Shown: positions 16,113-60,650 of the stretch, piece after piece
Layout of the letters: the number at the start of each line of letters is the position of its first letter
Numbering within the stretch: position 1 is the stretch's first letter
NCBI GenBank assembly: GCA_002633005.1
Contig: NMRA01000187.1
Location: 367,740-431,739 of the forward strand
Direction: 5' to 3'
Source of the DNA: Phoronis australis
Taxonomy: Eukaryota; Animalia; Phoronida
Length of the DNA stretch: 64,000 nt
Made by a program: the position numbers and the translations under genes
Notes under the pieces: generated by a model
Databases searched by the model: none
Seen by the model: the letters and a program-made list of their open reading frames with translations, nothing else
Told to the model about the DNA's origin: nothing

Positions 16113-18791
<2,679 letters not shown>

Positions 18792-21242: not shown

Positions 21243-23516
<2,274 letters not shown>

Positions 23517-35396: not shown

Positions 35397-35430
35397 TGAC
35401 GTCATCTCAACTCAGCTCCGGATGACGTCA
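35397..35430. promoter_or_regulatory. Pair of perfect CRE palindromes (TGACGTCA)
   Basis: TGACGTCA at 35397-35404 and 35423-35430, both in ATGACGTCAT context. Confidence 0.45.
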
Positions 35431-38400: not shown

Positions 38401-38829
38401 AGCAGTTAGCTCCAAATATCCACATCATCCCCCTAATGGTGGTGTTGCACCCGACGGTATGAAACGTTGGAGGAAGCCTTAGGTCTTCGAATGGAGGTCA
38501 GGCAGTTACATTCATTGGTGAGACATTTTCCCAAATGAAAGAAAATCAACTTAACAGGAAAACGTGTAAAAAATTAGCATAGTCTGATCAAGTCACCAGC
38601 GTATTTATTTTTAGCATTACTACGTAAAATTTTGCTGAAATTCACTGGTATTCACAGTATTATGACACTGAGAAGCATTCGCTCTTAAAAATCCATTGTT
38701 AAAACATCAATCAATTTCCAGTAGAATTACAAGTAGTTGGTGACGTAAAAAGTCTCCACAGCTGCTCCGACTGTGTGAAAAGTTGAAGGAAGCTTTTGAT
38801 CTTCACACGGAGGTCTGGCAGTTGCCTTC

Positions 38830-39360
38830 CAAGTTAGAAAATAACATTTCTAAAGCAGAAGTCCGCCCCGTTGCACAGTGTAGTGTTGTTTGTGAATTTG
38901 TATGTCCTATGAACGAATGTCTTCGTTCAAACGTCAAACAGTGTTACGTTGGTCAAACGGTTTGCAGTCTTTCCCGTCGGTTATCTATGCATCTTCAAAA
39001 TGGTGTCATCCAAGATCATTTTCTGCAATGTCACGAACGTAAAATTACCCGTCAAGAAATTGTGGAAAACACCTCAATTCGCTACGTGGAGCACGATGTG
39101 CTGCGATTGAAAGTATTTGAGTCCTTTTTAATTGCTTTTGAGAAGCATGTTTAGAATGAGCAGCAAATATGGTCGCGCCGCACGTTACACTTGTTTGGGT
39201 GACTTTCCTGTTACCCCCTTTCATTAGTCATTCTTTGCAGTATTTCACACCCGCCTTGTCCCACTGTGTGTGTCGTCAGCTTATGCTCTGTGGTGGCATT
39301 ACTGCGTCATTTTACATTCTCTTGAGAATGAAACAAGTATGTTTCGAAATATCGTGTGTC
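38830..39360 (+). mobile_element. Penelope-like retroelement 3' remnant (GIY-YIG endonuclease fragment)
   Basis: ORF 38783-39154 has VVCEFVCP..C...CYVGQTVCSLSRRLSMH...IQDHF...LKVFESFLI, the PLE-type GIY-YIG pattern. It is followed by a hammerhead-like motif at 39322-39353. Confidence 0.8.
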
Positions 39361-39593
39361 TTTTAAGTATGTCGCTAGGTCAGTTACTTTATCTATGTTC
39401 ATTTGAGAGTAGTTTTGTTCCGAAGGTTTGAACGTAACAGAATAAAGACTGTGAGCAATAAAAAGTGTCGTGCGTTTAAACAATTCTTTATAACCGAAAA
39501 CTTGCTCCCGAAGTACAGCCAAAAAGTTAGCCTGGCAACATTTTCTCTTCAATGTGTTATTTTGATGCCGTTCATGTTTTCTATGAAACGTTT

Positions 39594-39712
39594 CTAATCC
39601 TAACCCTAACCTTAACCCTAACCCTAACCTAACTCCAAGCCCAAGCCCAACTCCAAACCCAACCCCACACTCAACCCCCACCCCAACTCTAACCCCAACC
39701 CCAACCCTACCT
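39594..39712. repeat. Degenerate telomere-like hexamer array (CCCTAA/CCCCAA)n
   Basis: About 20 hexamer units, visible directly. Confidence 0.9.
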
Positions 39713-39765
39713 ATGGGTTTCCATACACTCAGTCAACAAAGTACTGGGTTGAAATTGGACACATG

Positions 39766-40878
39766 CAGCCGATTTCATAAAGCTGGTTTCAAGTTAAACC
39801 TGGTTTAAACTGGACTTAGACCAGGTTTAAAGATAACCTGCATTTCATAAAGGTGGTTTAACTTTTAGACCAGTGGTCTAGTAAAACCTGGTTTAACCCC
39901 TGTTTAGACCTGGTCTAAGTCAGTTTTCATTTCACCAACGAAGTCTATATTCTTTAAACCTGAATTAAGATCTTAAACCATGTTTAACTTTAGACTTGGT
40001 CAGTACCAGGTTTAACTTAAATACGGTGAGACTTGCATGGTATGGGTACAACTGAATGATGCTGCGGAGTGCATTTGCGAGGCAGTTTTAGAGGGACAAT
40101 GGACTATTTTCAATATTCAGTTTTATTACTGCACCAGATCAATCGTAGCAGGGGCGGATCTAGGATTTTTAAGGGAGAAGGGCAGCCAAGGACTTTTTGA
40201 AAGAGGGCACCAAGTCAAAAATTTGATATCACTAAAATCAAGGGAAAAAGGGGCTCCGGACCCCTTGACCCCCTGGATTCGCCTATGCGTAAACCAGTAC
40301 GTGCTGGAGTGTGTCCTGCGAATTCATCAGAATACGACTGGTCGAGCAGGGCGTCATGGTCGTAAGCGCTACGGATTTGAATTAAGACAGCATCTTCTGA
40401 GTTGCACGTCCACTGTTCTCCGATTTAATGTTGCCGGGAAGGGGTCTTGCCCCCCCCTTTGACCGCGAAAAATAAGCACTAAAGTGACACGGAAATAAAT
40501 TTGGGCATTTATCATGTTACATCTAATCGTAAGCATGTTCTTTAATGTGTGTGTGTTGGGCACAGAAATTAAATTTTTCCTCATGAGAAAAGCTTTTAGA
40601 CCTTTTTCGTAACTGTCTGCACTGATTCTACTAGTGTATGCCATTGTATATTCACGTGATCAAGGTTTCATTGAAGCACTTCAATAGTTTCTTTGTTGGG
40701 TTTACCCAGCTCGACACAGTGGGGTGCCTTTAATACTTTAAACCTGGTTTTACTGAACCAGCTCCCTGGTGTAGCAAAACCAGGCTTTCAGACTCTTAAA
40801 CCATGTTGGTGAAATGCAAGTCAGATCTAAAATTAGACCAGGTTTAGGAACACCAGGTTTAAGTCTTAAAATCGGCTG
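39766..40878. mobile_element. Non-autonomous PIF/Harbinger-like element with subterminal AAACCTGGTTT/AGACCAGGTTT repeats and a nested MITE
   Basis: TIR CAGCCGATTT / AAATCGGCTG, flanked by ATG on both sides (3-bp TSD candidate). Many quasi-palindromic subterminal repeats at both ends. Confidence 0.75.
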
Positions 40879-43800
40879 ATGGAGTTTTTGCCAGTCCCCA
40901 TTGACTGAGGTAGTCACGTGCTGTCGCTCTGAGCTGGTATTTTAATATCTCCATCAGTCTGAGTGGTCTGTTGTCAAGAAACGAAGTGGAGCTACCTGCT
41001 GTTATTGATGAGGAGATGTCGGTTCTTGACGTGTTTTCCGACTGCGTTCAAATGAGGAATGCTGGTGATCATTTTGTGGCCATTAGGCCTACTGGAAGCA
41101 TTGGATTGCGATATACTGTTGAAGGATGACTGTCAGCCACGTATTCTGAACTTCTCCACTTTTGAAGGATGGCAGGCGTAGGTTTCCTTTGAGCTCTCGG
41201 CGTGGTGGTGCTCACCCAGTCGTCCACAGAAAGGACACCAAGGTTGTTACTCCTCCAGCCCAGGAAGTACATGCACCAATAAACCTCAGGACACCTCGTG
41301 TTTCGGATGTTCAGTGCATCAAAAGCAACCTCAGTGATGATGACAGCAATGTCAGTAATAGAAAGTTTCCAAAGGTCCAGCGTGTGGTGTCTGTGGAAAA
41401 CGAAGTTGAAGATGACCAAGACAGATAAGCCATCAAAGTCACACAAACGGCTGCTTGAAGAGAGAACCAATGTTGGTAGCGATATTCAGTGCATCACCAG
41501 CAAACTCAGTGACGATGATAGCAATGTGCAGTTCACTACTGTCCTGGTCTGCCAGACCCATTATACCAGGAAGAGATATCTCTTCCTGATTATACTTATC
41601 ATAATGGCCCTTTGTATCTCTCTTGTACGGAAGTGTTCTCTTCACTCGGTAAATGGTGAGCACTTGACAGGGCATGTGCAGCCTTCTCATGCAGGTTCAT
41701 ACCAGCAAATAAAATTTTCATGTCTTCATTTCTGTTAGTGAAGTGGTCCAGATGGATTCGCATTGATGTTCTGTTTTGTATTTTGAATTATCCACGTTTC
41801 TACCCCAAGCTGCAGAGCACGAAAATGACGATTGGTCAGAGCAATGAGCTATATTGCTCGTTGGTCAGAGTCTGGTATTGATGTCTGACAATAAAGAAAT
41901 TGACTTCTGCAGCGCCAGCCCAAGGTTTTTGTACGAGAATGAACGTACTTACGAGTTTGTATTCCCAAATTAGTAATCTTGGTTTAGCATTTGACAAGAT
42001 ACTTCAGAATAATAGCTATAACGTACAAACAGAATTTTGCTTTCAAAACAGCAATGTTGACTCCCAGGAACTCCGACACGTGTATTTATCGAATGTCCCC
42101 TCATTTTACTCTGATGTCTGCAATTCCTTGCCTTCTATATTATAGGCAGTCTACGTGTTGTGCTAATTTTCATTTTAGTAGCATTGCTCTAAAAGAACAC
42201 AATTTCTATTTATTTTGTTTATAAGTAAAGAAAAAAAACAGATACCATCATTGCCTAGTCCGGAATTTGCTTTCCTTTTTAATTTCGTGTACTAAAGTAC
42301 ATATTTTCAATATCAAAGAATTGACAAACAACACACACGTTTATCTTTAATCGACAAAAAAGCTTTGACCGAGGTAGACCGGTCTTACGTAAGTATTCTT
42401 AGTATCAGCAATATTTATATACAAAATGCTGGCATGATTCTGGGGGTGACATGTGTTTCAGTGTTTTTACAGAAGGCTATTCGCAGAGTATCAGAATAAT
42501 CAAGCAGTTGAGAAAACTAGCAGTGTCCTTTTATATTTATTTGAACTGTCCCTTGCTGTTTAGAGAGTGGTGAAGTAAACTGTAGAATCAGGCCTGTGTT
42601 TTCATTTTAAACACTGCATTGTCGACTCGGTCGCAAGCAGGAAATGCGGACCCACGCAGTTCACTGAATACAATGTCTAATTTATATACCGTACATGCAT
42701 GTGTATCGTGTTAGGCCGCGGTACCACGGAGAGGGCAGTAGCCTCTCCCACCTTCGGCCACAAATTATGGAAAATTCCGTTAAATCAATAAAAAACTTCG
42801 CACTGCGCAACATCTAATAGAAAAAAAAACACCGCAAAACATTATAGAAGCCACACCAACAGCGACATACAGTACATAGAGACGAATTAGATCAAAGAAA
42901 GAGCTCGATGTAGATAAAATTTCCAATTCTCCGATAAAATCCCACAACATTCTCATTCAAGAGGCACAGAATGCCTCTCAGTTCTAACAACCAAGAATGT
43001 GAGAAATAAAGATCATACAATAACATTGGCCTGAAACGCAAGAATGGAAGATTGACAAGCTTGAAAACTAGTGTATTGTTCAATAGTTCAATACACGATT
43101 GTGTCATAATGGCAAAACATATTTTCCTGAAGTATCTCCAAAGCAGTGTCTCATTTAAGGATCATTATCAGGAAAGCAATATCTAAGAGCTTTGGATTGT
43201 ACGTTCGAAACTGGCCGAGTGGATGAGTAAATTTCCGAAATAGTAATGGATATGAATTAATAATAGGTGTTCGATCTAATTCAATTTTTTTACTTTTGGA
43301 CCTACAGCCAAATTCATCAAAATTGTTGGAGCAGCACTACGGAACTTTTTTCTCTACTGACGTCATAATAATGTCGTCTGCATAACTAAGGTTGCAGATG
43401 AAACTTATATTCTCAATAGCCGTGTCCTTCGAAAATGAATTGAACAAGTTGCAAGTAGGAAACAGTCAATCACACTATCTGTTACTGAGAACCATTTACT
43501 GAATGTGAAGTTAGTCTGGTCCCCATTTTTGTGCGCCCTACATCGAACCTGGTCGCAGCGTCTTCGTGTGAGTGTAATCGCCGAAAGTTCCACATTGAAA
43601 CATTGAAATGAACAGCGACTTTTGCTAACAATTTCAGGTATGCAAACGTATGAATATTCGATTATTCAGTTTGCGTATTGTTGTTCTATAATCAAGGTCA
43701 TCTCAGGTATTGCACTGTATTCATGAATGGTGCATAAATCTTCAAAATTATTCGCTGGATATGTTTGATTGTTGCGTGACGTCAGGTGCATTGTTCAACA

Positions 43801-44318
43801 ATAACAACGTGACGCGTGATCATGCGACGTCATTGTTGCTATACAGCGTACAATTTTCATGCAACTGGGCCCTGGTTTGTAAGAATAACTAGATGATTGA
43901 GTAAATATAAGGAAGGTGCGTGGGTGTACGAGAGTGTGCGTGTGCGTGTTTGTGTGTGTGCTTCTGCTTGCTGCGTAACCTGCAAAAGACTGGACAAGCT
44001 TGTTTCAGCAAGTAGACAAGTCTGCTGCACAATTCCCATGCTGCACATGAGAAAGGGGTGTCAGTATCAGGAGACTTCGAGTGATTTCATCTTTCAACTT
44101 TTTATTATGTTTATCAGGTCAATTGGTCATTTTATCGATAGCATTAGATAGATTATGGAACTTTACCGTCTTCTCAACAAACACTACATATACGATTACA
44201 TTTCCAGTCATTAGGTGGGGAAAAGGAAAATATCCAATAAATGTCAACTCAGTGACGTTCACCCATCAGTTTTCGGGTTGATATGTGATATAGTCAGATG
44301 CACTAGATATTCAATGGC

Positions 44319-47300
44319 CTATTCTGTTTTATAGGAAAATCCAGTGCCTTCGAATTCCTTGTCAACCCATTCGCCAATCGCGTTAGTGATTGCTTCTGGC
44401 AAACCTTCCTTCCAGTCACCCACGACGCCCTTCCGAAAAAACGAGCTCTTTTCTTTGTCCATGAAGACTGCGTCCAGAGGTTGGGTACTGGGGCACTTTC
44501 TCATGTTTTCTATGGAGCTCAACGCCGCAATCGACTCCACTTCCTGTGGTGTAACCTCTTTCCCGATGAAGTGGGCGATTTTAGTGATTTCTTTCACCAG
44601 GTCTCTCTTCATGTCTTCGTAGTGTACGACTATCATAGGTTGGTTGTCTTTATGTTCCCACCATGACTTGTACAATTCAGGATATGTACCACTACCGTAG
44701 GGAAGGTCGCCCTTCATCATGCACTGCGCGAATTCCTCTAAGGTGCCTCTAAACGGTTCGTACTGCTTCATTGATGTGAAGAACGAGTACATACTCTTAA
44801 GGACATCTTTAGGGTTTCGCACCAGTAATATTATCTTCACTTTGCCTTCTTGAACCGCAGGTGGGGTCAGACTCCAATGCAAATGTGTGTTAAACACTCT
44901 GGGACTAGCCTTTTTCTTCCATCTCTCCACGAGCGCGCTATTCGACTCAGCTGGTCTTCCAGTAAACACGGTATTATCCAGCTCGAGAAATTCAATGTGG
45001 TCACTCAAGAATTCCTTTTCCAATGCTTGTTTATCGCCGTCGAGAAGCAGGAGTGAAAGAATATACTTCAACCAGTGTGTCCCTGTCTTCACGTGGGTAA
45101 CTAAAAGAACATCCGATTCGCGCATTTCCAAATTTGGAATGACTTTCGATACTCTTTCATAATCGTAGGATTTATTCCTAAATTTGATCCCTTTGTAGAC
45201 GAAGCACTGGTACTGGGGAGCCTAAAAAAACGAATGAGTTAACAAGAGTTGTAAGCGCCTCTAAACACATATGGTAAAATTTATAAAGAGAGACATGGTG
45301 TCAATTTAAGAGATTTTAAAAAATATACTGCAATACCTTTCGTAATCTCGCGAAGTCTTGCTTTTTTAGCGAGGTCCTAGCATTACTGAGCTTTATCCTG
45401 CCTTCTCAAATATGCTGCACGTCTGACCGCGGTATAAGCCCCTTCACAAACACTGACGACTGGACACAAGCTCATGGTGGGAACTCTTTAATTAACAACA
45501 AGGAGTATTTGACTCCAGAGTTCTGCTGCCAACTTCACAAATGATTCATCAAAAGTAAGTTTCAAATTCGTCTGACACGAAGAATTCTCAGCTAACATGT
45601 TTTTCTCAAGAACTGGAGTGGCCCTTTTCGCAAATGTGCAGCTTTTACAGGGAAAAACATGAGAATGATTTATTTGTTCTGGTCGTGTAAATGTCTGCAG
45701 TATCTTTAACCCTCTTTGTTAATTGGACGAAATCATTTAGTCGTCAAACAGCGGACTTGAGGATCTGGGACCCGTTCCAAGAAAACTGACTTAGCTAAGA
45801 CAAATCTTAAATTTCCGTCAATTTCAAAACAAAACTTAAAATTATCTCAAATCTGTTTCAACAAAGGAATCTTAAGTTTGACTTAATTTTTTAACTTAAG
45901 TTTTGTATTAATTTTGACTATCTTAGTGGGTGGAGAACTTTCAAAGTTTTGGATTTATTGAATCAAAACTGCTCTATTGACGAGTCCTTGAGTCAATTTG
46001 CCACGCAGGAAATGATTGAACATGATAGTTCGTGTGAAAAGTGTAGTAACAATTTCCTTTCTGATCTTAATACTGATTTCTTGCCCTCTGAAATATATGA
46101 GGCCATTGAACAATTACCTACTGGCAAGGCTGGGGGTTATGATGGCGTGATCTTTGAAATGCTGAAGTGCACAAAGGTAACGATAGTGCCAGTCTTGCAT
46201 AAGTTATTCAATGCAATTTTTGATTCTGGGTATTATCCCAAGACATGGTGTGACGCAGTGCTTACTCCAGTACATAAACAAGGCAATATCAATGACGAAA
46301 ATAACTATAGAGGTATCTCCCTGTTGTCTGCTTTGGGAAAACTTTTTACCAAACTTTTAAATAATCGTCTTTATTACTGGGCTGAAAATAATGATAAACT
46401 TTGTGAGTCTCAAGCTGGGTTTAGAAAAGGCTACTCTACGATTGACCAAGTGTTTACACTTCAAGCTATGTGCCACAAGTATTTGAGTCGGCAGGGTGGG
46501 AGATTTTACTGTGCTTTTGTAGATTTCTCGAAGGCATTCGATCGAATCCCACATAATTTACTATTCTATAGATTGAAAAACATTGATGTGCATGGTAAAA
46601 TTTTCAACATAATCCGCTCTATGTATAGTAAGTTGCGCACTTGAGTGAAAACTCAAGATGGTCTTACAGAGTTCTTTGATTGTACTGTTGGTACTCGCCA
46701 GGGTTGCATGATCAGCCCATTATTATTTGTGTTGTATCTAAATGAATTTGTGGATCAAATGAGTATGAAAAGTAATATTAATAGCACATATCTCAGCGAA
46801 CAAGTGCCAAGGGTTAACTCCCTACTGTACGCAGACGATATGGTGTTATGTTCCTCTACCGCCATCAACTTACAACGTATGCTTAATTGTTTGGCAGAAT
46901 TTTGCAAATCATGGGGCATGCAAGTAAACTTTTTTTCAGATGTATGGATTAATCAGGGTGTGGTAAATCAAGCGTATTTCTTGACTGTTTTTTCTCAACG
47001 TGTCAACGACTGTTATTTGCAAGGTTGGCAATCTGATATCGAATGTAACGCAAAACTGCCTTACTATGTGGGGTACAAAACAATATATCATCTTGAGAAT
47101 TATCCAGAAATGGTTGGTATCCGGCCACGTGTTTTTATCCAGTCTCTGACTCGATTGCGATGTTCAAATCATTCGTTACTAGTGGAAAGAGGTCGCCACA
47201 CAAATATTCCCTATGAAAACAGGTTGCGTGAATTATGTAATTCTGGGTGTGGAGAGGACGAATACCACTTTGTGTTAGTTTGTAGTGCGTACCAAGACCT

Positions 47301-47757
47301 TCGGGTTAAGTACTTAAGTGATCGTTTATGTCATTCTCCCACGACATCTAAATTTGATTCTCTCATGAGAACTCCAGATAGCATACTTATTAAATTCGTC
47401 CATCACGCTCTCAAGCGTCATAATGTATTATCCAGTTTGAAACGTGGCACCTAACAATGTTCTTGTACATGATATACTTGGGGCCTACGGCCATGTGTAT
47501 ATGTCTCAATAAAATACTAATTCAATATTTCAAGCCTCAGCGACTAAGCAGTTAAGGGGCAACATTTCGATAGTCCAGGCCAGAAAGATTGCGAGGTTGC
47601 CGACACGATACGTACACTCGCTGATCACGTAACAAGCTAAGCTTGCTCTAATATCATTAAGGGTTGCGCGACGTCTCGTTGATCAAAAGTACACAGCGTC
47701 GGTAATGACAGTTAGTAAGCCCATACTCACCAATGACTCCTCACTGCAGGTTGACAT
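44319..47757 (-). CDS. Cytosolic sulfotransferase (SULT-like), ~309 aa; exons 47731-47757, 44319-45221
   Basis: 5'-PSB-like THVKTGTHW, catalytic His in RVFNTHL, 3'-PB RNPKDVLKS, and FFRKGVVGDWK. The frame is open from the acceptor at 45221. The upstream exon MSTCSEESL|GTGAGT is in phase 0. Confidence 0.92.
45930..47525 (+). mobile_element. 5'-truncated, defective non-LTR retrotransposon (LINE ORF2 reverse transcriptase, RTE-X-like) inside the SULT intron
   Basis: NYRGISLLS, QAGFRKG, FVDFSKAFD, GTRQGC.ISP, LLYADD and C-terminal ERGRH...EDEYHF..C. There is an in-frame TGA at 46642-46644 and an apparent internal deletion near 46930. AATAAA at ~47508. The clade assignment is inference. Confidence 0.92.
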
Positions 47758-48388
47758 TTTGAGGATGATTTGGGCCAGACGAGACGTTATGCGTTGAGTG
47801 CATGCGTGTTGAGTATAGCAAAATTACGGTTGGGGGTCTTTAAGCACCACTATGTGCGCGATTGACAGTTTAAGGTAACACCCACCTCGCACAGGATTGG
47901 CAGCTCATGTTAACGCCCATATATATATTTATTCAATAACTAGGCCTCCAGCCCTTGTTACAATCAAATCGCCCTTGTTACAATCAAATCATATGAGGGT
48001 AAATAAACAATGCTTAGGTAATATTAGCAACCACGTCTCTAAGTAAGTGACCATTTCATATACTATATGCCTCTACGAACCTATTCTCCAGAATTAACAA
48101 GGTTGAACTCGTGACCTGGGTTGGTTTTAGTAGCGCAACTTTCTCGTCAGAAAAGCGAGATCACACAAGTCCTCGTGATATAACGTCAAGCATTACTCGA
48201 GTTGCACAAGTCTTGTGTCTACACGACCAGCTCCGGCCGGTGTGTGGCAAAATCTTGACCAAGTTTGCGGTACTATTGTACCACATAAACGCCAAGAAAA
48301 CAACTTAACCATTCCATGTGAATGAATAATTACTTTAAGTTCCCGATCTAAGTATTGCTTTCAAGTTATTGACGCACTGGATATTAAA

Positions 48389-49720
48389 ACAAGAGCAACG
48401 CGGACCGTTGAAATGCGCCCACGAATGCATCGCAAACGGTGTGCTTTTAGGGCTGTTTATTGGTCATAAAAATGGCCACTAGGTGGCGCAAAATACCTCG
48501 ATTCCATCCAAACACGGGAGGATAGCGTCATCTCACCAACAGATGCCTGTATTCAAAATTTTATGAAAATCCGTTGAGGAGGTAAACGTAAAATATTGCC
48601 ACCAGGGGACACACCAGTAGTCAGATCCGTCCGAAAGTCGTTGTTTATTGTCAGCATCATATAAATACACTTGTTAAATTTAGTAAAGATCCTGCAAACG
48701 GTTTAAGAGATACAGCCATGGGCAAAAAAACGAAACTGCCACTAGGAGGCGCCACAGTAGCTGGTCATCGGAAAATCATCGTCAGTCCTCCACTTCATAG
48801 TAAAAAATACATGCTAATTTTCACAATTATCCTGAAAGCGATTTGGTTGATAGAGGGTTGGACGCCAAAAAACAGACTCGAAAACGGTAAAAATGGCCAC
48901 TAGGTAGTGCAAACTCAGTCAAATGAGTCAAATCCAACGGAAAGATAGTGTCACCACACTAACAGAAGCCTATACGACAAATTTTTGAAAATACACTGAG
49001 AGCCTTTGAAGATACAGAAGTTAACGTAAAAAAATAAAATTGCTACCAGGGGGCACACCAGAAGTCAAATCCGTCCGAATGTCGTCGTCGTCCTTTGTCA
49101 ACATCATATAAATGCACTAACTAAATTTAGTAAAGATCCTGCAGACGGTTTAGGAGATAAACGGAGCCATAGGCGCAAAAATACAAAATGCCACTAGGAG
49201 GTGCCACAGTCGTCGAATTCGTCGGAAAATCATCTTCAGCCGTCCTCTTCATACTAACAACATACGTGCCAATTTTCACAATCATCCCTAGAACAGTTTG
49301 TGTGATAGAGGGGTGGACGACTAAAAACATACTTGAAAACAGTAAAAATTGCCACTAGATGGCGCAAATTACGTCGAATCTATCCGAAAACGGGTGGATA
49401 GCGGCATCTCACTAATAGATGCCTACATGCCAAATTTTATGAAAATACACTGAAGACCTTTGAAGATATAGAGGTACGCGTAAAAAAACTAAACTTGCCA
49501 CTAGGGGGCAGAACTGTAGTCGAATCTGTCTGATAGTTCGCTCATGCCGTCCCATCTATGAAAGGAACACGTGTAAAATTTCATGAACATACGTCAAACG
49601 GTTTTGGAGTTAGAGCAGTGGACGCCGGACGGACGCTGGACGGCCGGACGCCGGACGGTCGCCGCCCGGACGGACATGGCGGCATAATGCGTCCACATAT
49701 AAATATGTGGGCGCATAAAA
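48389..49720. mobile_element. Helentron/HINE-like non-autonomous element with internal tandem repeats
   Basis: Starts ACAAGAG in an A-run. Asymmetric sub-terminal IR ATGCGCCCAC (48413-48422) / GTGGGCGCAT (49707-49716). Terminal hairpin at 49687-49716. GGACG microsatellite. ~145-bp subunits in a ~440-bp higher-order repeat. Confidence 0.75.
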
Positions 49721-50292
49721 ATTCGCCGAATGCTCCACAGCAGTCAGTGGTCAGACGCTGTGACCAGCAAACGCCTAAGGACCAATTGGTACTATCTTTA
49801 AAAAACTCCGCTTCTCTCCGTAGTCAGCCGTCATCTTTCCAAACACCCTCCTTCCCCACTAATGACGTAATGTATGAAGGGTCAATTGCATCGATAGCAA
49901 ATTTGTCAAAATATTAACACTAGAAATGTCTTGTGTTATTCGTGAACATAAATAAGAATATTCATCGATTGCAGTAGTGCGTTCAACCCTGAGCAACGAT
50001 GTAATTTTGCTCGATAGTTTCTCTTTACGGGAGATTAGACGACACGAAAAGGTTCAGGTGTCAGGCTATAGCCCAGAACAGCATCGTTATTATAGAATAA
50101 ACTGCGGAATTATTATGCCTTCATAAGTTCGTAAACTGTGAACATGAGTTCGCTACTAGTCAATAAAAATTCTTGAGATAAGGAATAACACGAAATTAAC
50201 AGTATACTTTTATAGCAAATAACGTCGTACGTAATAGGTTGTGAAGCTCAAATGCACCTTTACCTTTGAAACATTATTGAACAGTGAAACTT

Positions 50293-53200
50293 TCACGTGA
50301 ATAATTCAAATGATAACAGTAAAAATTCGAACAACGTAACCATCAGAATGGAATGCAGGCGCGTGACACCGGATTGCAAATGTTCGGATTCACGTTTTTT
50401 GGTTATTGGCTTGATGCTGGTTGTTGTACTGGAAACAGAAAAAGCAGCAGATCTTTTCACAGCAGCTGTTGTTAGAGAAACTGGTTGATTACCACTGAAA
50501 CGATAACATTTGTGCGCCTGTTTTCGCGGATCATGATAGCTGAAGACTTTCACGCACGCATTCTGCAGAGAGGCTACGATTCGCTTTCGCCGAAATGATA
50601 CCGAGAAGCATGATTGGAAGCCCATGGCAATGTCGACGTAATATAGCGCCACCTGACTGCGTCCAACGTCAATTTCCATCACGTTATATCTTTGCAGAGG
50701 GATGTCTGCATCCTGCGGTCTTAGTGAAAACCCAGTAATCGCCTCAACTAACACGACACCTACTCCCGTCTTCAATATATCCGTCGACCAGTGACATATG
50801 TGTAACGTGTACGCGTACTGAGACTGGTCTTTAACATCTACTGAAAGGTGAATAGATGAGTAACTTTCTATCAACTGATGGTACGAGCCAACAATTGAAA
50901 CAACAGCAAATCCACTCCCCGTAGCCGTCACTTTGACGACGTCTGTCTCCATAGGAGCTTTTATTTTCTGCACTTCAAATCGTTTGTCTTTGCTAACGAA
51001 TCTGTGAGAACCAACCAAATTGTCTTGCTGATAAAAACGAACAGAAACAACCAAATTAGAAGTGATACTTTTGACAGAAGAAGCAAGTTCAGACAATGCA
51101 TTCAAGACAACCGCCGTGTCTGGTGTTGAGAAGAAGCCACCTCGCCCATTACTGTGATGAATCAACCATTTAGCGATGTCAAAGGCGTCGGGACCATCCC
51201 TCAAGATGGTAGTAAGCAATGCGTAGGCAGTCGTTTCAATGTCAACGGCAGATGGCATTTCGTAGACGTCACCTGCGACCTTGGTCCAGTACTTCTCACC
51301 GTCCTGCACTTTGGCCACGGAGTCTAACTTTGCAAAAGCTGCATCTTTTAATTCATTATTCACTAGATGCAGTGCATACGTAACAATAGCAGTTGTGTAA
51401 ACATCGTATACTTCACGGAAATGACGACCTAAGTAACTAGAAGCGCGCACAATAGCGTTTGTCAGGTCAACAGTTGCATTCTTGTATTCTTGAAGAGCAA
51501 TCACGACAAAAGCAGTCAACGACATTTTACTTTCAGTATGTATCCCTTGCATACTCGGGTGCAATGTCCGTCCGGGCTCTCTGAACGCCCCATCAGCCTC
51601 TTGTTGACGAAGAATCCAAACTAAAGAGTTGCTCAACAAGTGTTGGTCAACAAAGATGAAGTCACTGGCCCATAGAAAGGACTTGGTAACAAATGCAGTC
51701 AACCAGAGACTTCCACTCTTGTCAGCATTTCCAAATAAGCTGAATGAATTGTCCTTCCTAAAGAAGACCATCCGTCTTTGATAGTCCATCTCCAAATTTC
51801 CGCGAATCTTGTCTTGAATGGAAGAGAGAATTTCTGGAAATACACTCAGATAGCGTAACACGAGCGTACTGGATACAAATGTGATCAGGTTTTGTTCTCC
51901 ATACTCCGTGAGCTGGGGTGTCAATTTTTCCAAGTGTTGAAGAGTTAGTGCAAGCAAGTCGCCAGAAAGATAAACTGATGTTAGGCCTGACTGAGTCGAA
52001 GCTTCAGTTGGTAGCTCTATGTCCTTTAATGTTTTTGACACTGGATTTCCGGTTCGCAAATCCACCAGCACAGAAGTCATGGAATGCTTAAGTAAGCCTG
52101 CTGAAACCACGACAACTACTTGTTTCAGACGGCGCAAACTTATTGCTGACCTGGCTTCGACACTCAGCGTAATATTTCCAAAAACTTTGGGAATGATCCA
52201 GACATCTACAAAGTTTGCACTTTTAGGTTCAACATTTGATGTTGCAATAAATTCTTTTGAAATTCCCATATCACTCACGTCAGTAGCTTCATCGTTTTTA
52301 ACAGAGAAATCTCTTGACTTCTGCAATATAATATTAATGGTCTGAACAGAGTCAATATAGTTCATGACTGAAATCGTCAACAAAAATTGCTCATGTCTTT
52401 TTACACTTAATGGGCACTTCATAAACACATCATGGGTTCTACGAAGAGCAATTTTCGTGGGTTGGAGAACAACTCCTAAACCCCCTGACTCACTCATGGC
52501 AAACCCAAACGCTCTCCATGTCGCAGACCGGTCAGGAACATCCGCGGAATGGCAGAATCTCCCACTTTCATCAGTTCGCCCGTGCAACCACAACCACGTT
52601 TCAGAAAACAGTCTCTCATTTCTCACTTTTTCCCTTTCCATCAATGCTTCATCGTTTCTTGTGATAGGCCATTCCGCTAGAATTTCCATTTTATTTATTT
52701 CTGACAATTTATACACAGCTAAATTCGACAGGACTCGTACGCCCGCTAGTTGAAACATTTCAAGAGATTCTATTCCCAGTAGCAACGGAGGTCTTTCATC
52801 AGTTTTATGTTGTAATTGGAATTGATAGTCAATGTTTACCGAACTGATGTCAGCCACGGCATTTGGGGCGAGTTGGTCGCCAACAGCCAGTCCAACAAAT
52901 GAATGAGGTTTTGCTGTAGCGCAAACAGTAACTTGCTGGTCATGATTTTCCAAAGAAACTGTCTCCCGGTCTTCTTTATTGGCAATCTGTATGTTCACCA
53001 AATTACTACGTAAGACCACACTTGGCAGCCTCATAGAGTGACGGCTTTCTGGAAAATGTATCTTTACCGCGTTGCTGAAACATTCTACTACAAAATGTAT
53101 ACTGTCGGCAATGATTTCTTGCTGAAATTCTGTGAAGACAAGCAACTTACAAGACGGAGAATGAATACTGGTCATGTTACGCCAAATTACGTACTTTCCA

Positions 53201-56200
53201 TCTTTTAGAAAGTCTTGAGAGTTTTCAACCATGATACCTCTGCAGACAAATACGTAAGAGAAGACTTTGTCGAGCTTTGAAGAAAGCGTGACATCAAACT
53301 CTGCACTTTCGCCGCATTTTAAATCATTTGACTTCAAAGAAACATGGATAAATTCCTTATTGAGACTACGAAATTCGTCAATATACTTCAGTTCCTTCAT
53401 ATCATCCAAGCGTGCTTCTATAGCAAGCAACCCTATCAAGTGTTTAGTGTCAAATGAGAACTTTATAATGCCATTTGCGTCAACGTTTTGAAAGCTAAAG
53501 TATGCAATGGTACGAAAAAAGGAACTAGTTTCAGAGCGAATGGTTATCTGCAATCCATTCCATTCCTTATTGACAAGAGATTCATGAGCCATTTCAACAT
53601 GCAGGGATCCATAATATGTTGTATTTGGCATGTAGGCGCTCGGAGAAGAGTCAGTAAAACGAAAACGAACTTCACGCGTGTAAAGAGTGACAACTGATTC
53701 CGTCAATTCTGTAAAATCGGTTCCTATTTCACGCACTTTTACTTTAAAAACTAGCCTTGTGTTGTCAAGTATTCTTTTCCCACCAGCCCAAGTGACAAAG
53801 TCTTTATCTAAGATGGACAATTCATAATTAAACTTAAACGTATCGGAGGTATTCACAATTGGACTCAGAAACCTCAATTGCTCACTTTCAAAAGAAACAA
53901 TGATCGATATCTCGCCCTCCACGTGTTTTGCAAAATCACGGTGCGCTGAAACCGCAACAAGCAAACTGCTGCTTCCAATAAAGTGGTGAGATGGAGCAGA
54001 CAGCTTGATATGGAATACTGGTTCTACGTAATTTAAAACTGAAAAGAACTCTTTTCCATACGAACTGTCGCACACAGACGTTTTTATCATCCATTTACCT
54101 GTAACAGGTATATCCGCTAGGTGAAATTCACCAAAGAACACACCGACCGTAAATATTCTGTTAGCCAATTGTTTCATCGTGTAGCCGTTAGGTTCGATTA
54201 GTGAAACATTTAACTTACAAGACGATGAACATGGCTCCAGTGTTTCCGAATCCAGTCGGATGCACATTACTCTGTACTTTACAATTTCGGATTGTTTGTA
54301 CAACTCTTTGTCCGTCTTTATGAGCAACATGGAACGATTTCGTCGTATTTTTATCAAAGAGGAATTTGACAAACGGAACCTAATTGCTGAATTTTCTAAA
54401 GTAAATTTGACTGTTCCTTCTGCCTGGGGCTTGTCACCTGGTATGAACAAGTTAAACGTGGCCACGGTATGCATTTTTGTCATTACAGACGACGCAGTGG
54501 AAAGTGGATACAAGAATTTGGTATCTTGTAAACTGTATAATGAAACATTACACACAGAATCTGAGTCTATGGTCTTTAAAAGATGCAAGGCGATGACGCA
54601 TTCTGAGTTTGTGTAGCACACGTTTGGAACCAAAAATACATGGGGGACAACTGGGAGTTTCGAAGTTTGTTCTGTCACCGCTATGTCGTCTTGGGTTATG
54701 CGTGGATGGTCTTCTACCATACGAGGCCTTCTCACAGCTGGGAAGTAGAAAACGACGGCATGCTGACCTGGTCTTTGGGAATTGAATGCCTTCACCACAG
54801 CTCTTTGATGTCCCCGCACAATGGCTGATCGTTTGAATAAAATGCTCATACATGTCGGCTTACTTTCAATAATATTATCATGATACACTGTCGCTCGATT
54901 GCTTGCGACATCCACGTGTTTAATGTCGTCAACTGGTTTTAGTTCTATAGAGCTTCGATCTGGTTTGAAGCCAGATAGTCCATATATCTCTGTTACGCTC
55001 ATTCCAGTAATAGGAACAGCTGCAGACCACTGACATATCTGCAACGAGTACTGATATTCGGAATGGTTTTCAACGTGTACTGTCATGCGAAAAAAAGTCT
55101 GTTTGTCCTCTGCTTTGTAATTTTTCGACACAATTGATAAAGCTGCAGTCCCGTATCCTAAGCCAGCTATTTCAATGTTGTTTGTTTCCAATGGCAATTT
55201 AAAAAAATAAGTCTTCATGCTGTCGGTAAATACAAACTGATAATCACCAATCACAGTATTGTGATTGCGGCAACGAAGCTTGATGTCCATGTTGATAGAC
55301 CTGTCTATCAACATGGTCGATGATTGAGACAGTGCTTGGAGAATGACGGCGACAGCGTGGGTAGGTAACATGCTACCTTCTGCTTTCATTTGAATACTTA
55401 GCCAATTCCAGATACGAACTGCTTCCTTGTGATCTTGTCTAATGACTGATACTAGTAGTCCATATGCCGTGGTCTCTATTTCTTTGGCCGATACAGGAGC
55501 ATTGATATCGCCTGTAGACCAGTACATTTTGTTACCTTCTATTATCGCCATAGCTGTAAGTATATCATGTGCCAAGTCCATCACTGTGCTATTGGCTACG
55601 TGAAGCGCGTAGGTCGCTAATGAGATTGCATGAACGTCGTTTAGATCGTCTATTTGGTGATAAAGATAGTCAGTACACAGCTTTATGGCTTCCGCAATAC
55701 CATCTGAACCAATGTCCAAATTTTCTACTAAGGCTATCAACACATGCGCGCTGATGGCAACTCTGTCACTTTGTGCGATGATTTGAATTTCGGGATACGA
55801 AACATTTCCCGGCTCGTGGAAGAAACCATCGCTATTTTGATGCATTAAAATCCATTTTGTCGCTTTTATTAATACGTCTTCGTCGACAAATATGAATGAA
55901 CGAGCTTGGTGAAGCACCTTAGCTGTCAATGATGTTAGCCATAGATTTCCACCTCCCGTCTCCTTAAGAAGTGCACCGAAAGAGCCGTCTGGATGTCTGA
56001 CAGCAAGTTGCTGCTGATACGTAAGGGTCATCTTTCTTAAAATTGTTTTCCTTAAATCGGGACTAGTCGTTGATGATTCGTCCAGATATTTAAGTAACAA
56101 TGTGTCTGAAAAGAGTGAAATTGCATTGCGCTCTCCGAATACACGGTTAAAAGCCAATACTGTCTCCAGTGAATTTGCAACAGCGACCACGACGTCAGAG

Positions 56201-58860
56201 ACGAAAGAAGACATCTTGCCAGAATTGGTCAGGGCACCTAGCGGCACAAACTGATCTGAAGTCGATAAGTTTTGTCTCAAATCTATCAATATAATACTTA
56301 CGAAGGTCTCAAGCACCCCTTCTGGTTCGACCATTATTTTCCCTGTCACAGCATGCGACGCACTTGACGATAATGCCGTGGCTGTTAACGTTATATTACC
56401 CAGCACTTGTGGGTATATCCAAACCTTTACAGTTGCGGTCTCTCCTACTTTGATGAGTGAAGGTATTGTTATTGGCTTTGACTTCCAACGGATCTTTTGA
56501 CCTGAAGTGCCCATTTCGTCGTATCTTACAAGAAAGTCATTCGATTGCCAAAGAGAAATTTCTGCTCGCTTTTCAGATTTCTCCAGATTGGACACTGAAA
56601 TTATCAACAAAAATTCCTCTCCTTTCTTTAGAGCTTCCGGGTAATGCATCAATATTAACAGTGCTTTGCGCACATTAATTTCGTTTTTCTCAGCAATTAA
56701 ACCGAATCCCGATGTACTGCTCAAGGTGAATATGCTGAGAGTAAGGCGCGTACATTCACCTGGTGCTTTTACGATCTTACACACAATGCCGTTGTCATTC
56801 GTTGGCCCAAATATCCACAACCAATGCAGCGGAGACACTGACCAACGTGAAGTAGCGCTTTGTGAACAAAACTTCGATGGCGTCTTCCGATTTGGCTGCG
56901 TCATGACCACATAACCATCCGTTAGTATACGGAGGCCACTATTAAAAAAAATACTCCGCGAGTCCGTTAGCCACATTCTGCACAAGTCTCCATTGCTTAC
57001 CAAGGGATCGTCACCGAGAGATGTGGACGAAACTGATTTGATGAATATCGCTAGTGATTCATATGTCAAAACACTCTGATAAGTTTGGGACTCAGTTGCA
57101 AGAACTGTGACGTATGAACCTGGCTTCGCAGATACGCAGGCCAACATCTCCTCCTTTGAATACAACACATTTTTCGTTGCTCCATCGTCAGCTACAAACT
57201 TCACATAGACTGGGTTTGTTTGACTGCAGTCAACTGTAAATTCCAACATACTTGCTGCTAGCTCATCACTGATGACGAAATACGCACCAAAACTGCATTC
57301 AGGCGAATACTTGGGAGTCATCTGACGAACAACAACATATGTATCTTCCGAAAGTATTGCGCTGCTGCTTTCAACAACCTGACCACGGCAGACAAAAAGG
57401 TAGTAAAATGGCATGGTGCCCACTTTGTGCAAGACTTCTACCACAAATCTGGCCGTCTCTCCGCATGCAAAGTGTTCCACCACGGCAGATACTTGTATAG
57501 TTTGACGAGTTTCAGACGTGAACTGTTCAACGGAAAACCGTTTTGTAGTAGATTTCAGCTCAGCTAATATGATCACTAAACCCTGAAGGTCGGTGGTGTC
57601 AAACGCAAAATTGATAGTGCTACCCTCTTTTGCATCATCGGTAAAGAATGTGCGTATCCTTGGCGCTTCAGAGATATCACGTGACCGTCCTTTTAAAGTA
57701 AACTTCAAATCACCCCACTCGTTTTCTGCAAGACTTCGGTTGAGAAATTCAACTTGAAGAGCTCCAACGTATGTTGTCCCTCTCACGTAAAACGGTGGAG
57801 ACCTTTTCAAAAACTTCAGCTGCACTTCATGTTGGTGAAGACCTACAAAGGCAGTCTCCTTTTCTCTATTTCCTGTCAAATACTCTGAAACTGTAGCTAT
57901 AATTACCATGACACCTACGTCCCCAGTTTTAAATCCATTCATACAATGGGCTACAAAATCGTCTTCAATCGTGTACTCCAAGATTCCAACGAATTCCTTA
58001 CTTGAGTACACAGTAGCCATTGGGCCATTTTCTTGATAACTACGCACTGAGCATGATATTTCCACTTTGAGCGACCCCACAACCTTTGAGTCCTTTTCGT
58101 ATGTAGCAATCACCGTAACTGGAAAACCAGTATTCCCATAAACGTAGTATCTAGGCGCTTCAATTGCAACTTTGAAGAAGGTCCTTGCTAACTCTTCAAC
58201 TTTAAAAATAATTGCTTCCTCAAGAACGTAACCACATGTTGACACTCTCACTTTCCAATCGCCAGTTGTTATTGTTCCAGCCAGTTCCATTTCACCTCGT
58301 GTTACCCCTGTTACAGGCTGCATATTTATCCACTCTTTTACTTTGCATCCGTCGGGGTCAACAACAGTAACGTTCATCTTGCAAGAAACATCACACGGAA
58401 GCAGCAACTGTGTTTCTGAACGTATACAAAATACCTCAAACGTAACTATTTCCGTTGGCTGATAGACCAGCTTATCGGTTTGAATGAACGAAATCGTTGG
58501 TTGTAAAGCAATTCTGACATCAGTCGAATTGTAGAATTCAAAATCGCCACCTTTCAATCTACTTGATATCAAATAGCCTGATCCTGGAGTTGTACCCACA
58601 GGGATAACCATGAACAGTATCACGCTTGACTGGTCAGCAGGCACCAAAGTTGACGCAAACGTTATGGGGTCTGTACTGTGTCCTCGCGAATAATGAAAGG
58701 ATAGATTCCATTCCGATGTAGTTGCACGAGGCATAAATAGGTTTAAAGACGCAGTACATCTAGCACCAACATAACATGTTACTGGAATGGTCGCCATGTA
58801 GGACACAGATGACACTGTTGGAAGGATATATTTAGTGACCAACAGCGCGATAATGAACAT
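50293..58860 (-). CDS. Intronless 2855-aa double alpha-2-macroglobulin/CD109-like (TEP-family) protein lacking thioester motifs
   Basis: Each family motif occurs twice: FIQTDKLVYQP/LIKTDKELYKQ, HWLW/FSETWLW, FGERN/YGEQN, DGSFGA..LWLTS/DNSFSLFG..LWLTAFV, IETTAYGLL/IETTAYALL, TGMSVTEI..LSGF/TGVGVVLV..ITGF. Hydrophobic N-terminus, and an S/T-rich then hydrophobic C-terminus. Confidence 0.95.
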   Translation of the reverse strand: MFIIALLVTKYILPTVSSVSYMATIPVTCYVGARCTASLNLFMPRATTSEWNLSFHYSRGHSTDPITFASTLVPADQSSVILFMVIPVGTTPGSGYLISSRLKGGDFEFYNSTDVRIALQPTISFIQTDKLVYQPTEIVTFEVFCIRSETQLLLPCDVSCKMNVTVVDPDGCKVKEWINMQPVTGVTRGEMELAGTITTGDWKVRVSTCGYVLEEAIIFKVEELARTFFKVAIEAPRYYVYGNTGFPVTVIATYEKDSKVVGSLKVEISCSVRSYQENGPMATVYSSKEFVGILEYTIEDDFVAHCMNGFKTGDVGVMVIIATVSEYLTGNREKETAFVGLHQHEVQLKFLKRSPPFYVRGTTYVGALQVEFLNRSLAENEWGDLKFTLKGRSRDISEAPRIRTFFTDDAKEGSTINFAFDTTDLQGLVIILAELKSTTKRFSVEQFTSETRQTIQVSAVVEHFACGETARFVVEVLHKVGTMPFYYLFVCRGQVVESSSAILSEDTYVVVRQMTPKYSPECSFGAYFVISDELAASMLEFTVDCSQTNPVYVKFVADDGATKNVLYSKEEMLACVSAKPGSYVTVLATESQTYQSVLTYESLAIFIKSVSSTSLGDDPLVSNGDLCRMWLTDSRSIFFNSGLRILTDGYVVMTQPNRKTPSKFCSQSATSRWSVSPLHWLWIFGPTNDNGIVCKIVKAPGECTRLTLSIFTLSSTSGFGLIAEKNEINVRKALLILMHYPEALKKGEEFLLIISVSNLEKSEKRAEISLWQSNDFLVRYDEMGTSGQKIRWKSKPITIPSLIKVGETATVKVWIYPQVLGNITLTATALSSSASHAVTGKIMVEPEGVLETFVSIILIDLRQNLSTSDQFVPLGALTNSGKMSSFVSDVVVAVANSLETVLAFNRVFGERNAISLFSDTLLLKYLDESSTTSPDLRKTILRKMTLTYQQQLAVRHPDGSFGALLKETGGGNLWLTSLTAKVLHQARSFIFVDEDVLIKATKWILMHQNSDGFFHEPGNVSYPEIQIIAQSDRVAISAHVLIALVENLDIGSDGIAEAIKLCTDYLYHQIDDLNDVHAISLATYALHVANSTVMDLAHDILTAMAIIEGNKMYWSTGDINAPVSAKEIETTAYGLLVSVIRQDHKEAVRIWNWLSIQMKAEGSMLPTHAVAVILQALSQSSTMLIDRSINMDIKLRCRNHNTVIGDYQFVFTDSMKTYFFKLPLETNNIEIAGLGYGTAALSIVSKNYKAEDKQTFFRMTVHVENHSEYQYSLQICQWSAAVPITGMSVTEIYGLSGFKPDRSSIELKPVDDIKHVDVASNRATVYHDNIIESKPTCMSILFKRSAIVRGHQRAVVKAFNSQRPGQHAVVFYFPAVRRPRMVEDHPRITQDDIAVTEQTSKLPVVPHVFLVPNVCYTNSECVIALHLLKTIDSDSVCNVSLYSLQDTKFLYPLSTASSVMTKMHTVATFNLFIPGDKPQAEGTVKFTLENSAIRFRLSNSSLIKIRRNRSMLLIKTDKELYKQSEIVKYRVMCIRLDSETLEPCSSSCKLNVSLIEPNGYTMKQLANRIFTVGVFFGEFHLADIPVTGKWMIKTSVCDSSYGKEFFSVLNYVEPVFHIKLSAPSHHFIGSSSLLVAVSAHRDFAKHVEGEISIIVSFESEQLRFLSPIVNTSDTFKFNYELSILDKDFVTWAGGKRILDNTRLVFKVKVREIGTDFTELTESVVTLYTREVRFRFTDSSPSAYMPNTTYYGSLHVEMAHESLVNKEWNGLQITIRSETSSFFRTIAYFSFQNVDANGIIKFSFDTKHLIGLLAIEARLDDMKELKYIDEFRSLNKEFIHVSLKSNDLKCGESAEFDVTLSSKLDKVFSYVFVCRGIMVENSQDFLKDGKYVIWRNMTSIHSPSCKLLVFTEFQQEIIADSIHFVVECFSNAVKIHFPESRHSMRLPSVVLRSNLVNIQIANKEDRETVSLENHDQQVTVCATAKPHSFVGLAVGDQLAPNAVADISSVNIDYQFQLQHKTDERPPLLLGIESLEMFQLAGVRVLSNLAVYKLSEINKMEILAEWPITRNDEALMEREKVRNERLFSETWLWLHGRTDESGRFCHSADVPDRSATWRAFGFAMSESGGLGVVLQPTKIALRRTHDVFMKCPLSVKRHEQFLLTISVMNYIDSVQTINIILQKSRDFSVKNDEATDVSDMGISKEFIATSNVEPKSANFVDVWIIPKVFGNITLSVEARSAISLRRLKQVVVVVSAGLLKHSMTSVLVDLRTGNPVSKTLKDIELPTEASTQSGLTSVYLSGDLLALTLQHLEKLTPQLTEYGEQNLITFVSSTLVLRYLSVFPEILSSIQDKIRGNLEMDYQRRMVFFRKDNSFSLFGNADKSGSLWLTAFVTKSFLWASDFIFVDQHLLSNSLVWILRQQEADGAFREPGRTLHPSMQGIHTESKMSLTAFVVIALQEYKNATVDLTNAIVRASSYLGRHFREVYDVYTTAIVTYALHLVNNELKDAAFAKLDSVAKVQDGEKYWTKVAGDVYEMPSAVDIETTAYALLTTILRDGPDAFDIAKWLIHHSNGRGGFFSTPDTAVVLNALSELASSVKSITSNLVVSVRFYQQDNLVGSHRFVSKDKRFEVQKIKAPMETDVVKVTATGSGFAVVSIVGSYHQLIESYSSIHLSVDVKDQSQYAYTLHICHWSTDILKTGVGVVLVEAITGFSLRPQDADIPLQRYNVMEIDVGRSQVALYYVDIAMGFQSCFSVSFRRKRIVASLQNACVKVFSYHDPRKQAHKCYRFSGNQPVSLTTAAVKRSAAFSVSSTTTSIKPITKKRESEHLQSGVTRLHSILMVTLFEFLLLSFELFT

Positions 58861-59110
58861 TGTCGTACGATGATCACTTTCTGGAAAGGATTGCGTCAGA
58901 TATGCTTCTAATTCGTGGCACGCGACAGTGCTCGTGAAACTGAATGCCTCTCGTGATTTTTTCCGTCGTTGTCACGAGCATCATCAATTGTTGATTAATT
59001 ATTTAATACTTCGGTCCATGTTTACTTAAAAGCAATGCTTTGATCAATTCACATAGGAATAGGAAGGTTTGCCTCATTTTTTGCGCATTTTGACATGGCA
59101 CCGATTTTCA

Positions 59111-59265
59111 TAGCCAGCCAGATAGCTGTAAGAAGACTACGGTCAAAATACAGCTAGGTACCACTGAGTGTTTTTCTTCCGTAGACCTAGCCAGCCAGCT
59201 AGCTGTATGAAGATTGTCGTCAAAATAAAGCTAGGTACCACTGTGTGCATTTCTTCCGTAGACCC
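59111..59265. repeat. ~77-bp tandem duplication
   Basis: TAGCCAGCCAG.TAGCTGTA...AGCTAGGTACCACTG...TTTCTTCCGTAGACC occurs twice. Confidence 0.85.
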
Positions 59266-60650
59266 CGAAATTCCACACAGCCAGGGTAGTTCTGCTAGTC
59301 ACCTCGCCGCGAAACTTGTATCAACATGTAAAGCTTAAGACCGGACGGGGGTGCATGAAAAATATGGTAATCAACCGACACTCACCTTGCCCGTTACAGC
59401 CGTTTAAGTGAAAAACAATGCGATAAACGTCATTTTCTTGCGAAGCTCTCCGCCTTTTCTAAAAATTGAAAAGTATGTCGTCGTTTGGAAAACAGTGCGC
59501 TCGTGTCACACGCACGCGCCATTTCCTAATTTTTGCGACATCTCTCAGGAGATGATGATATGAGCTTGGCAGCAGCAAAATTTCTTCTGAAATTCGGTTT
59601 TTCGGAATCAAAATTCTAAAAACTTATAATGAAGTGAAACCAGTTCCGATAATTTGTTACGCAACCTCGTGAAAGGATAACAGTTGATTGAAGAATCGGC
59701 GAAAAAAGAAACTAGCCAATAGGTGACGCAATATTTCATGGCGCCGAAAGCCGTCGCTAAAGATCGCTCCACAACTTTAGCAGCAGAATAACGGTAGAAC
59801 GCCTTTTTTTCCAACACCGTTAAATAATTCAGTTTACTCAAAGAAGACTGTAGTTTTTAATGATACTAATTTTGTGTCAGATTTTATCTTACCACTTTTT
59901 TTTACCCACATCAGTGCAAAGCTGTATATTTATATACAGCTTTGTACCAAGGCTACCGTAGACCCCGAAACTGCACACAGCCAGGGTAGTTCTGCTCGTC
60001 ACCTCGCCCTGAAACTTGTATCAACATACTGTATAATGCTGATCACCGGACGAGGTGCATGCAAAATCTTGGAATCAACCGACACTCACCTTGTCGGTTA
60101 CAGCAGTTTAAGTGAAAAGTAATTTAATTAACGTCATTTTCTTGCGTAATCCTCCGCCTTTTCTAACAAAGAAAAGTTATTTCGTGGTTTCGAAACCAAT
60201 TCGCTCGTGACACGCGCACGCGCCATTTCCTAATATGCGACATCTCTCGGGAGATGATGATAGCTTGGCAGCAGCAAAATTTCTTCTGAAATTCGATTTG
60301 CTGGTATCAAAATTCTAAAAACTTATAATGAAGTGAAACCAGTTCCGGTAATTTGTTGTGACGTGTACGCAACCTCGTGAAAGAACAACAGTTGATTGAA
60401 GAATCGGAGAAAAAAGAAACTGGCCAATAGGTGACGGAATATATTTCATGGCGCCGAAAGCCAACGCAGAAGATCGCTCCACAACTTTAGCAGCAGAATA
60501 AAGGTAGAACGCCAATTTTTCCAAAACCAGAAAATAATTTTACTTACTCAAATATGCGTGTAGGTTTTAATGACACTAATTTTTGTGTCATATTTTATCT
60601 GGTCAGTTTTTTTTACCCACATCGGCGCAAAGCTGTATATTTAGTATACA
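59256..60650. repeat. Diverged ~700-bp tandem duplication upstream of the TEP gene
   Basis: Units start at CCGTAGACCCCGAAA (59256 and 59956). They are colinear with many substitutions and indels, and no N lies at the junction. Confidence 0.9.

Follow-up and report, generated by a model that had tools for sequence, protein, structure and literature searches.

Members of the A2M/TEP superfamily (MEROPS I39) follow a set order of domains, an MG ring, a bait or linker region, CUB-TED, and MG8, and carry the thioester motif GCGEQ. To our knowledge, described animal TEPs have one such module per chain. In TEPs, non-covalent trapping is linked to multimer formation. C5 carries ANA and C345C domains. 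In CD109 the thioester is intact, and a furin site ahead of MG8 permits protease-triggered shedding; cleavage of the bait triggers a shape change, and the monomeric protein requires thioester conjugation for protease inhibition (excerpts of PMC12927315). A2M consists of four identical, separate chains and traps sterically as a tetramer (excerpt of PMC8712716). Some family members have lost the thioester, and other functions have been described for thioester-less TEPs; chicken ovostatin lacks the thioester cysteine and is still an inhibitor, and Mcr has an LDLa domain and a transmembrane helix (excerpts of PMC7016707). Here we describe a double TEP in a 64-kb stretch of DNA from Phoronis australis (the window, 64,000 nucleotides analysed as a whole), in which one chain holds two such modules.

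Architecture and transcription of the double TEP

Translation of the window identifies a single stop-free frame on the minus strand at 58860-50293, with 2855 codons followed by a stop (2892 aa when measured from stop to stop). It is the sole frame longer than 300 aa within the 64-kb window, and the remaining five frames over the same positions contain 108 to 209 stops each. The three Ns of the window (positions 1023, 3892, and 9812) all lie outside the frame. The original prediction was that this frame encodes two full TEP modules, and Pfam bears it out: across the whole chain MG2, A2M_BRD, A2M, TED_complement, and A2M_recep each match two stretches, in order (MG3 matches one), giving two TED/receptor sets and not one, and each half scanned singly yields the full ordered domain set. 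A single-module profile of 30 relatives likewise matches twice, at residues 4-1376 and 1408-2792, with profile coverage of 98% for module 1 and 97% for module 2.

Module 1 (residues 19-1376; 54733..58806, minus strand) comprises MG1-7, a short bait-position loop, CUB, TED, and MG8. Module 2 (residues 1408-2792; 50485..54639, minus strand) has the same domain order and begins at MG1, without a signal peptide. Boundaries of ~58860-54745 and ~54640-50500 had been proposed, in good agreement with these positions. The domain order of the superfamily thus occurs twice in the chain, and its one-module-per-chain trait is not kept, with two modules in one frame. As had also been predicted, the modules are highly diverged, being 29% identical (401 of 1395 aligned columns) with no match to each other at the DNA level in a self-comparison of the window. 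No third TEP copy is present within the 64-kb window. With the frame, the Pfam domains, the profile matches, and sense RNA all in agreement, we are highly confident that a single chain carrying two complete CD109-like modules, encoded by a single-coding-exon ORF (50293..58860, minus strand), is the real architecture.

Structure prediction gives the same picture for each module. AlphaFold2 models, built from 48-sequence alignments of single-module relatives and omitting MG8, have a pLDDT of 78.1 and a pTM of 0.72 for module 1 (residues 19-1218) and a pLDDT of 79.1 and a pTM of 0.74 for module 2 (residues 1405-2604). In both cases the top fold match is native human CD109 (8s3o; TM 0.79 and 0.82, respectively), with activated CD109 forms scoring lower (TM 0.53-0.56). 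Since MG8 was left out and CD109-like homologues served as input, the models confirm the fold of the modules and bear neither on their conformation nor on how the two modules pack together.

The junction between the modules is tiled in DNA run X1 by contigs covering 49710-54695, 54666-54797, and 54768-59171, with 30-base overlaps; no single DNA contig covers the entire frame. The central contig forms a bubble with two alleles, 132 and 141 nt long (runs X1 and X2), whose depths in X1 are 22.8 and 28.7, respectively. The second allele carries a stop-free, in-frame 9-nt insertion just upstream of the motif RRPR, which is kept, and a synonymous change in the last RRPR codon. DNA runs X1 to X4 represent one sample, possibly the window's own source, whereas the RNA runs X5, X6, and X7 come from a separate study (151-nt reads; about one-fifth of each run was read). 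RNA strand was assigned from a plus-strand exon with GT-AG splicing, for which first mates map to the minus strand.

Sense RNA covers 50203-59024 in 22 of 22 bins in both X5 (depth, 2.3-13.4) and X6 (depth, 1.1-14.2), and its depth is 0 in all 22 bins in X7. Over five linker bins (54651-54785) X5 has a sense depth of 6.7-10.6 and X6 one of 2.4-5.0; inside module 2, the X6 depth drops to 0 in one 27-nt bin (54570-54596). The 151-nt sense reads cross the linker, with no RNA joints in 54300-55100 and none inside the frame among the 15 listed of 397. The insertion allele accounts for 3 of 16 reads and 6 of 11 reads, so that both junction alleles are transcribed. The double-TEP gene is transcribed across the junction. 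From the tiling of 151-nt reads, with the zero bin in X6 and 15 of 397 joints listed, we infer one full-length 8.6-kb mRNA. Misassembly of the junction is rejected on the strength of the tiling contigs, the two in-frame alleles, and the RNA from a separate study.

The variants in the frame are consistent with constraint. Thirty-four listed single-base variants, drawn from 40 of 614 rows plus 17 junction rows and excluding one cluster of three bases as well as the position next to the insertion, comprise 15 synonymous and 19 non-synonymous changes and no stop (pN/pS, 0.37-0.47; p, 0.004-0.024). Selective constraint on the frame is moderate. Long-term purifying selection had been proposed for this locus; the listed variants agree that selection is purifying, at moderate strength only.

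Antisense transcript and the rest of the window

A second transcript runs antisense to the double TEP. Its 18.9-kb GT-AG intron (35565..54488, plus strand) is identified by loose read ends at 54488 (3 reads in X5 and 7 in X6) that match 35534-35563. The 3' half of the double-TEP ORF lies within this intron, and the next exon (54489-~54790, plus strand) overlies the module junction. The first exon (35400-35564, plus strand) is accompanied by a pair of CRE sites, TGACGTCA, which lie at 35397 and 35423. Antisense RNA covering the 3' end of the TEP frame (50203-52207, plus strand) reaches a depth of 10-30, two to three times that of the sense RNA, in X5 and X6 and is absent in X7. Inside the antisense intron lies an intronless sulfotransferase frame (44322-45221, minus strand; Pfam Sulfotransfer_1, E 3e-60), whose best matches are 30-35% identical. 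A reverse-transcriptase remnant at 45895-47451 (plus strand; Pfam RVT_1), which we take to be LINE-like, consists of two frames split by a stop.

Elsewhere in the window, calmodulin-like exons at 1573-1866, 16429-17476, and 21959-22420 (minus strand) are clustered and represent two or more paralogous genes. A Rho-family GTPase has exons at 25927-27949 (plus strand), and neuroendocrine protein 7B2 has exons at 30841-31967 (minus strand). Tandem duplications of 94-98% identity (7480-9811 / 10357-12767 and 575-1479) are clear of the TEP frame, and a lone N stands close to their boundaries (1023 and 9812); they may reflect haplotype duplication at assembly joins. High-copy repeats stand on both sides of the TEP frame, at 48467-49721 and 59111-60650, and a weak bZIP_2 match (62022-62336, plus strand; E 0.0008) falls under the Pfam cut-off.

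Chain anatomy, family placement, and origin

The chain opens with a predicted signal peptide (residues 1-19; 58804..58860, minus strand), which has a hydropathy of 1.8 over 19 aa and aligns with the signal peptides of relatives. A pyrimidine run and CAG 20 nt upstream of the ATG (58881..58900, minus strand) form a candidate 3' splice site, which, on sequence only, suggests an untranslated first exon. The modules are separated by a hydrophilic linker of ~31 aa (residues 1377-1407; 54640..54732, minus strand; maximum 11-aa hydropathy, 0.15) that opens with RRPR, a minimal furin-type site (54721-54732, minus strand). The chain closes with a Ser/Thr-rich spacer and a terminal hydrophobic stretch (50296..50484, minus strand; hydropathy up to 1.82); the last 21 aa (residues 2835-2855) are hydrophobic and reach the C terminus, resembling a GPI signal. 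As the N terminus is hydrophobic, the linker hydrophilic, and the C terminus hydrophobic, module 2 lacks a signal peptide, and module 1 lacks an anchor; alignment likewise places no Cys-rich tail on module 1. This predicted anatomy fits one continuous protein.

Alignment places a bait-position loop of ~24 aa in module 1 (56833..56904, minus strand; pLDDT of <50 at model positions 639-658) and one of ~38 aa in module 2 (52609..52722, minus strand; pLDDT of <50 at model positions 652-680). Both are shorter than the loops of six relatives aligned, and they contain at most one Cys. The GCGEQ motif is present in neither module, a loss that the original prediction overlooked. In module 1 the aligned residues are VFGER (residues 907-911; 56128..56142, minus strand), with Cys and Gln replaced, and in module 2 they are EYGEQ (residues 2319-2323; 51892..51906, minus strand), with Cys replaced by Tyr. 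Exactly one C[GA]EQ occurs in 162 of 179 proteins compared. Judged by these motifs, both modules are thioester-less members of the A2M/TEP family. A Pfam scan of the protein finds no ANA or C345C domain and no LDLa match at E 0.01. In alignments, a furin site before MG8, as in vertebrate CD109 (RRR in Conger CD109), is found in neither module, and the iTEP C-terminal cysteine stretch of six aligned relatives is missing from both.

Sequence, fold, and trees agree on a CD109-like identity. Both modules fall inside a 131-sequence group (support, 0.957) containing named CD109/iTEP sequences, and not with A2M, CPAMD8, or C3/C4, in trees whose comparison sequences came mostly from searches with module 2. 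Finer placement is unstable and the branches are long; a grouping with mollusc CD109-like proteins (support, 0.92) shifts when a module is omitted. The lack of LDLa, ANA, and C345C in the Pfam scan rules out an Mcr or C3-like identity.

A whole-protein search gave 18 matches of 1631-2034 aa, and a HMMER search with residues 1601-2800 against 1.84 billion representatives gave 3357 matches, the best 150 of which are 25-34% identical. Neither those best 150 of 3357 nor the whole-protein search includes an orthologue, and the double-TEP protein itself is absent from the collection of 1.84 billion representatives. The best database matches are CD109-like proteins of Mya, Liolophura, Potamilus, Limulus, and Trichoplax. 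One HMMER match of 2854 aa combines one module with EGF/WAP/Kunitz repeats. In A2M-like proteins of echinoderms (P0105 and P0205-P0207; 2.8-3.6 kaa), one module precedes long EGF/WAP/thyroglobulin/Kunitz or similar tails.

A search among proteins of 2530-5000 aa, of limited sensitivity with one mollusc TED as the query, gave 28 matches, 24 of which have more than one module or part-module. Six of the 28 contain two modules that each cover at least 90% of the profile, and all six are single-member clusters. Three of these have a signal-peptide-like junction (hydropathy, 2.35-3.01, versus 0.15 in the double-TEP linker). In the other three, the junction is 237 residues long in one model and 67 residues long, with low hydropathy, in a rodent PZP model, and the remaining model falls into six pieces. 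Short, non-hydrophobic junctions also occur in some of the less complete long models. From the protein models alone, the six are likely merged tandem neighbours, and a genuine double TEP may exist among the database models of other species. Against these doubtful merged models, one coding exon with read support makes the present locus a clean case. A full-text literature search, whose coverage excludes most subscription papers, found no description of a tandem TEP. The claim that the architecture has no described counterpart thus stands for the literature, whereas databases do hold predicted multi-module TEP models; in this well-studied family, the architecture is apparently undescribed.

The two modules are mutual best matches among 175 sequences (531 bits, versus 365 and 433 for the next best), and the same is true over the first 600 aa only (222 bits, versus 105 and 117). 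FastTree trees of 171 C-terminal halves and of 123 full modules (4 and 52 of the 175 rows, respectively, removed for low coverage) place them among CD109/iTEP sequences as sisters with local support of 1.0; long branches could attract them to each other. They have in common 11 cysteine positions that are present in 0 to 3 of 46 other sequences, and 78-79 rare residues, versus a control maximum of 34-36. The mutual best matches, sister position, and 11 rare cysteines indicate one diverged CD109-like gene duplicated head to tail, and on this sequence evidence the modules stem from internal duplication of one ancestor. Fusion of two different TEP subfamilies is ruled out by the same trees, matches, and cysteines.

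Nearby, the calmodulin, Rho-family, and 7B2 genes show up as separate frames of exon size, and the double TEP is one coding exon; TEP genes have 35-43 exons in Biomphalaria and 11-15 in insects (excerpts of PMC7016707). A single coding exon lying antisense in the intron of another transcript suggests a retrocopy, and the intronless CD109-like gene is likely of such origin. An intronless, likely retroposed copy would have been duplicated head to tail, in frame, with loss of the C-terminal anchor from copy 1 and of the signal peptide from copy 2.

Proposed function and comparison with known systems

By analogy with CD109, A2M, and thioester-less ovostatin, we propose that the product is an uncut, GPI-anchored surface protein of two units and that its binding to proteases or other ligands would be non-covalent, a reading to which we give an even chance. 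The chain would stay whole and sit on the cell surface via its predicted GPI anchor, and cleavage of a bait loop would switch the shape of that module, as in CD109. Two linked units with differing bait loops would replace covalent capture, and the tethered second module would increase avidity and reach, so that the non-covalent trap of multimeric A2M would be built into one chain as two units. Because monomeric CD109 needs thioester conjugation (excerpt of PMC12927315), thioester-less modules may not inhibit.

It is possible, and we raise it tentatively, that the chain is instead a polyprotein, in which a furin-type convertase would cut RRPR to give a soluble iTEP-like module 1 and a GPI-anchored CD109-like module 2 at 1:1, possibly associated. 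A genetically encoded TEP heterodimer, as the original prediction had it, would presuppose that the modules touch, and the R-X-X-R site of the linker may split the chain. RRPR directly follows MG8 of module 1 at the opening of the hydrophilic linker, and it is retained in the second allele despite the synonymous change in its last codon and the insertion just upstream. Some furin substrates carry Pro at the P2 position. Processing by furin also belongs to the biology of CD109 (excerpts of PMC12927315). However, the site is minimal and one of six R-X-X-R sites in the whole protein, the sole R-X-K/R-R site lies within MG8 of module 2, and 12 nt compared between two alleles say little about conservation of RRPR, with no orthologue found for comparison.

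A non-inhibitory scaffold serving as an adhesion molecule or co-receptor, comparable to Mcr or to the TGF-beta co-receptor role of CD109, would be compatible with either processing state and seems to us rather unlikely. Both thioesters are gone and the bait loops are short, the 11 new shared cysteines in the MG domains could rigidify the ring, expression is sample-restricted (depth of 0 in X7), and thioester-less TEPs with other functions appear in the excerpts of PMC7016707. On the other hand, the LDLa that defines Mcr in that source is missing from the Pfam scan, and the bait-position loops remain and are predicted to be disordered.

More doubtful still is the fullest form of the uncut reading, in which this first real tandem TEP would be an anchored chain whose units pack into a genetically fixed two-bait cage for thioester-free trapping of proteases or microbes, an independent route to the A2M multimer that would found a lineage-specific family. 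An artefact or non-functional locus (a misassembly, two separate genes that happen to share a frame, or a young fusion in decay) is very improbable. In its favour, no long read or single contig covers the whole gene, it comes from one species only, pN/pS of the listed variants is only moderately below 1, and merged TEP models are common in databases. Against it, the frame is readable without an intron or gene model, both junction alleles are in frame and occur in RNA sequenced by a separate study, a signal peptide is missing from module 2 and an anchor and Cys-rich tail from module 1, and none of the 34 listed variants is a stop.

Two diverged thioester-less modules in a natural chain show that a unit of ~1400 residues can undergo in-frame duplication and be retained. 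With the double TEP, known so far from one species, one can ask directly whether two linked units can stand in for the thioester, and also whether one gene can yield a soluble and an anchored TEP together.

Among known systems, human CD109 (PDB 8s3o, 9fx2, and 9fx3) is the best solved-structure match by sequence (E 1.7e-103) and by fold, with the same domain order, a C terminus predicted here to be GPI-like, and no ANA, C345C, or LDLa in Pfam. It differs in having one module, versus two here in one coding exon, and its thioester and basic site before MG8 are absent here. Invertebrate iTEP/CD109-like proteins (mollusc, arthropod, and placozoan) are the best matches, and the modules fall among them in trees, but at no more than 34% identity, on long branches, and without their C-terminal cysteine stretch. 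The predicted multi-module models, such as those of Solemya (P0180), Anopheles cruzii (P0186), and Geotrypetes (P0190), are similar in having 2.5-5 kaa and at least two modules; their thioester motifs, in contrast, are intact, and those of their modules included in the tree do not group with the double TEP. Mcr/Tep6 and C5 are also thioester-less but have a single module. With A2M and ovostatin the double TEP shares a multi-unit arrangement that could permit steric trapping, whereas its two 29%-identical units lie in one chain, outside the A2M group in the tree.
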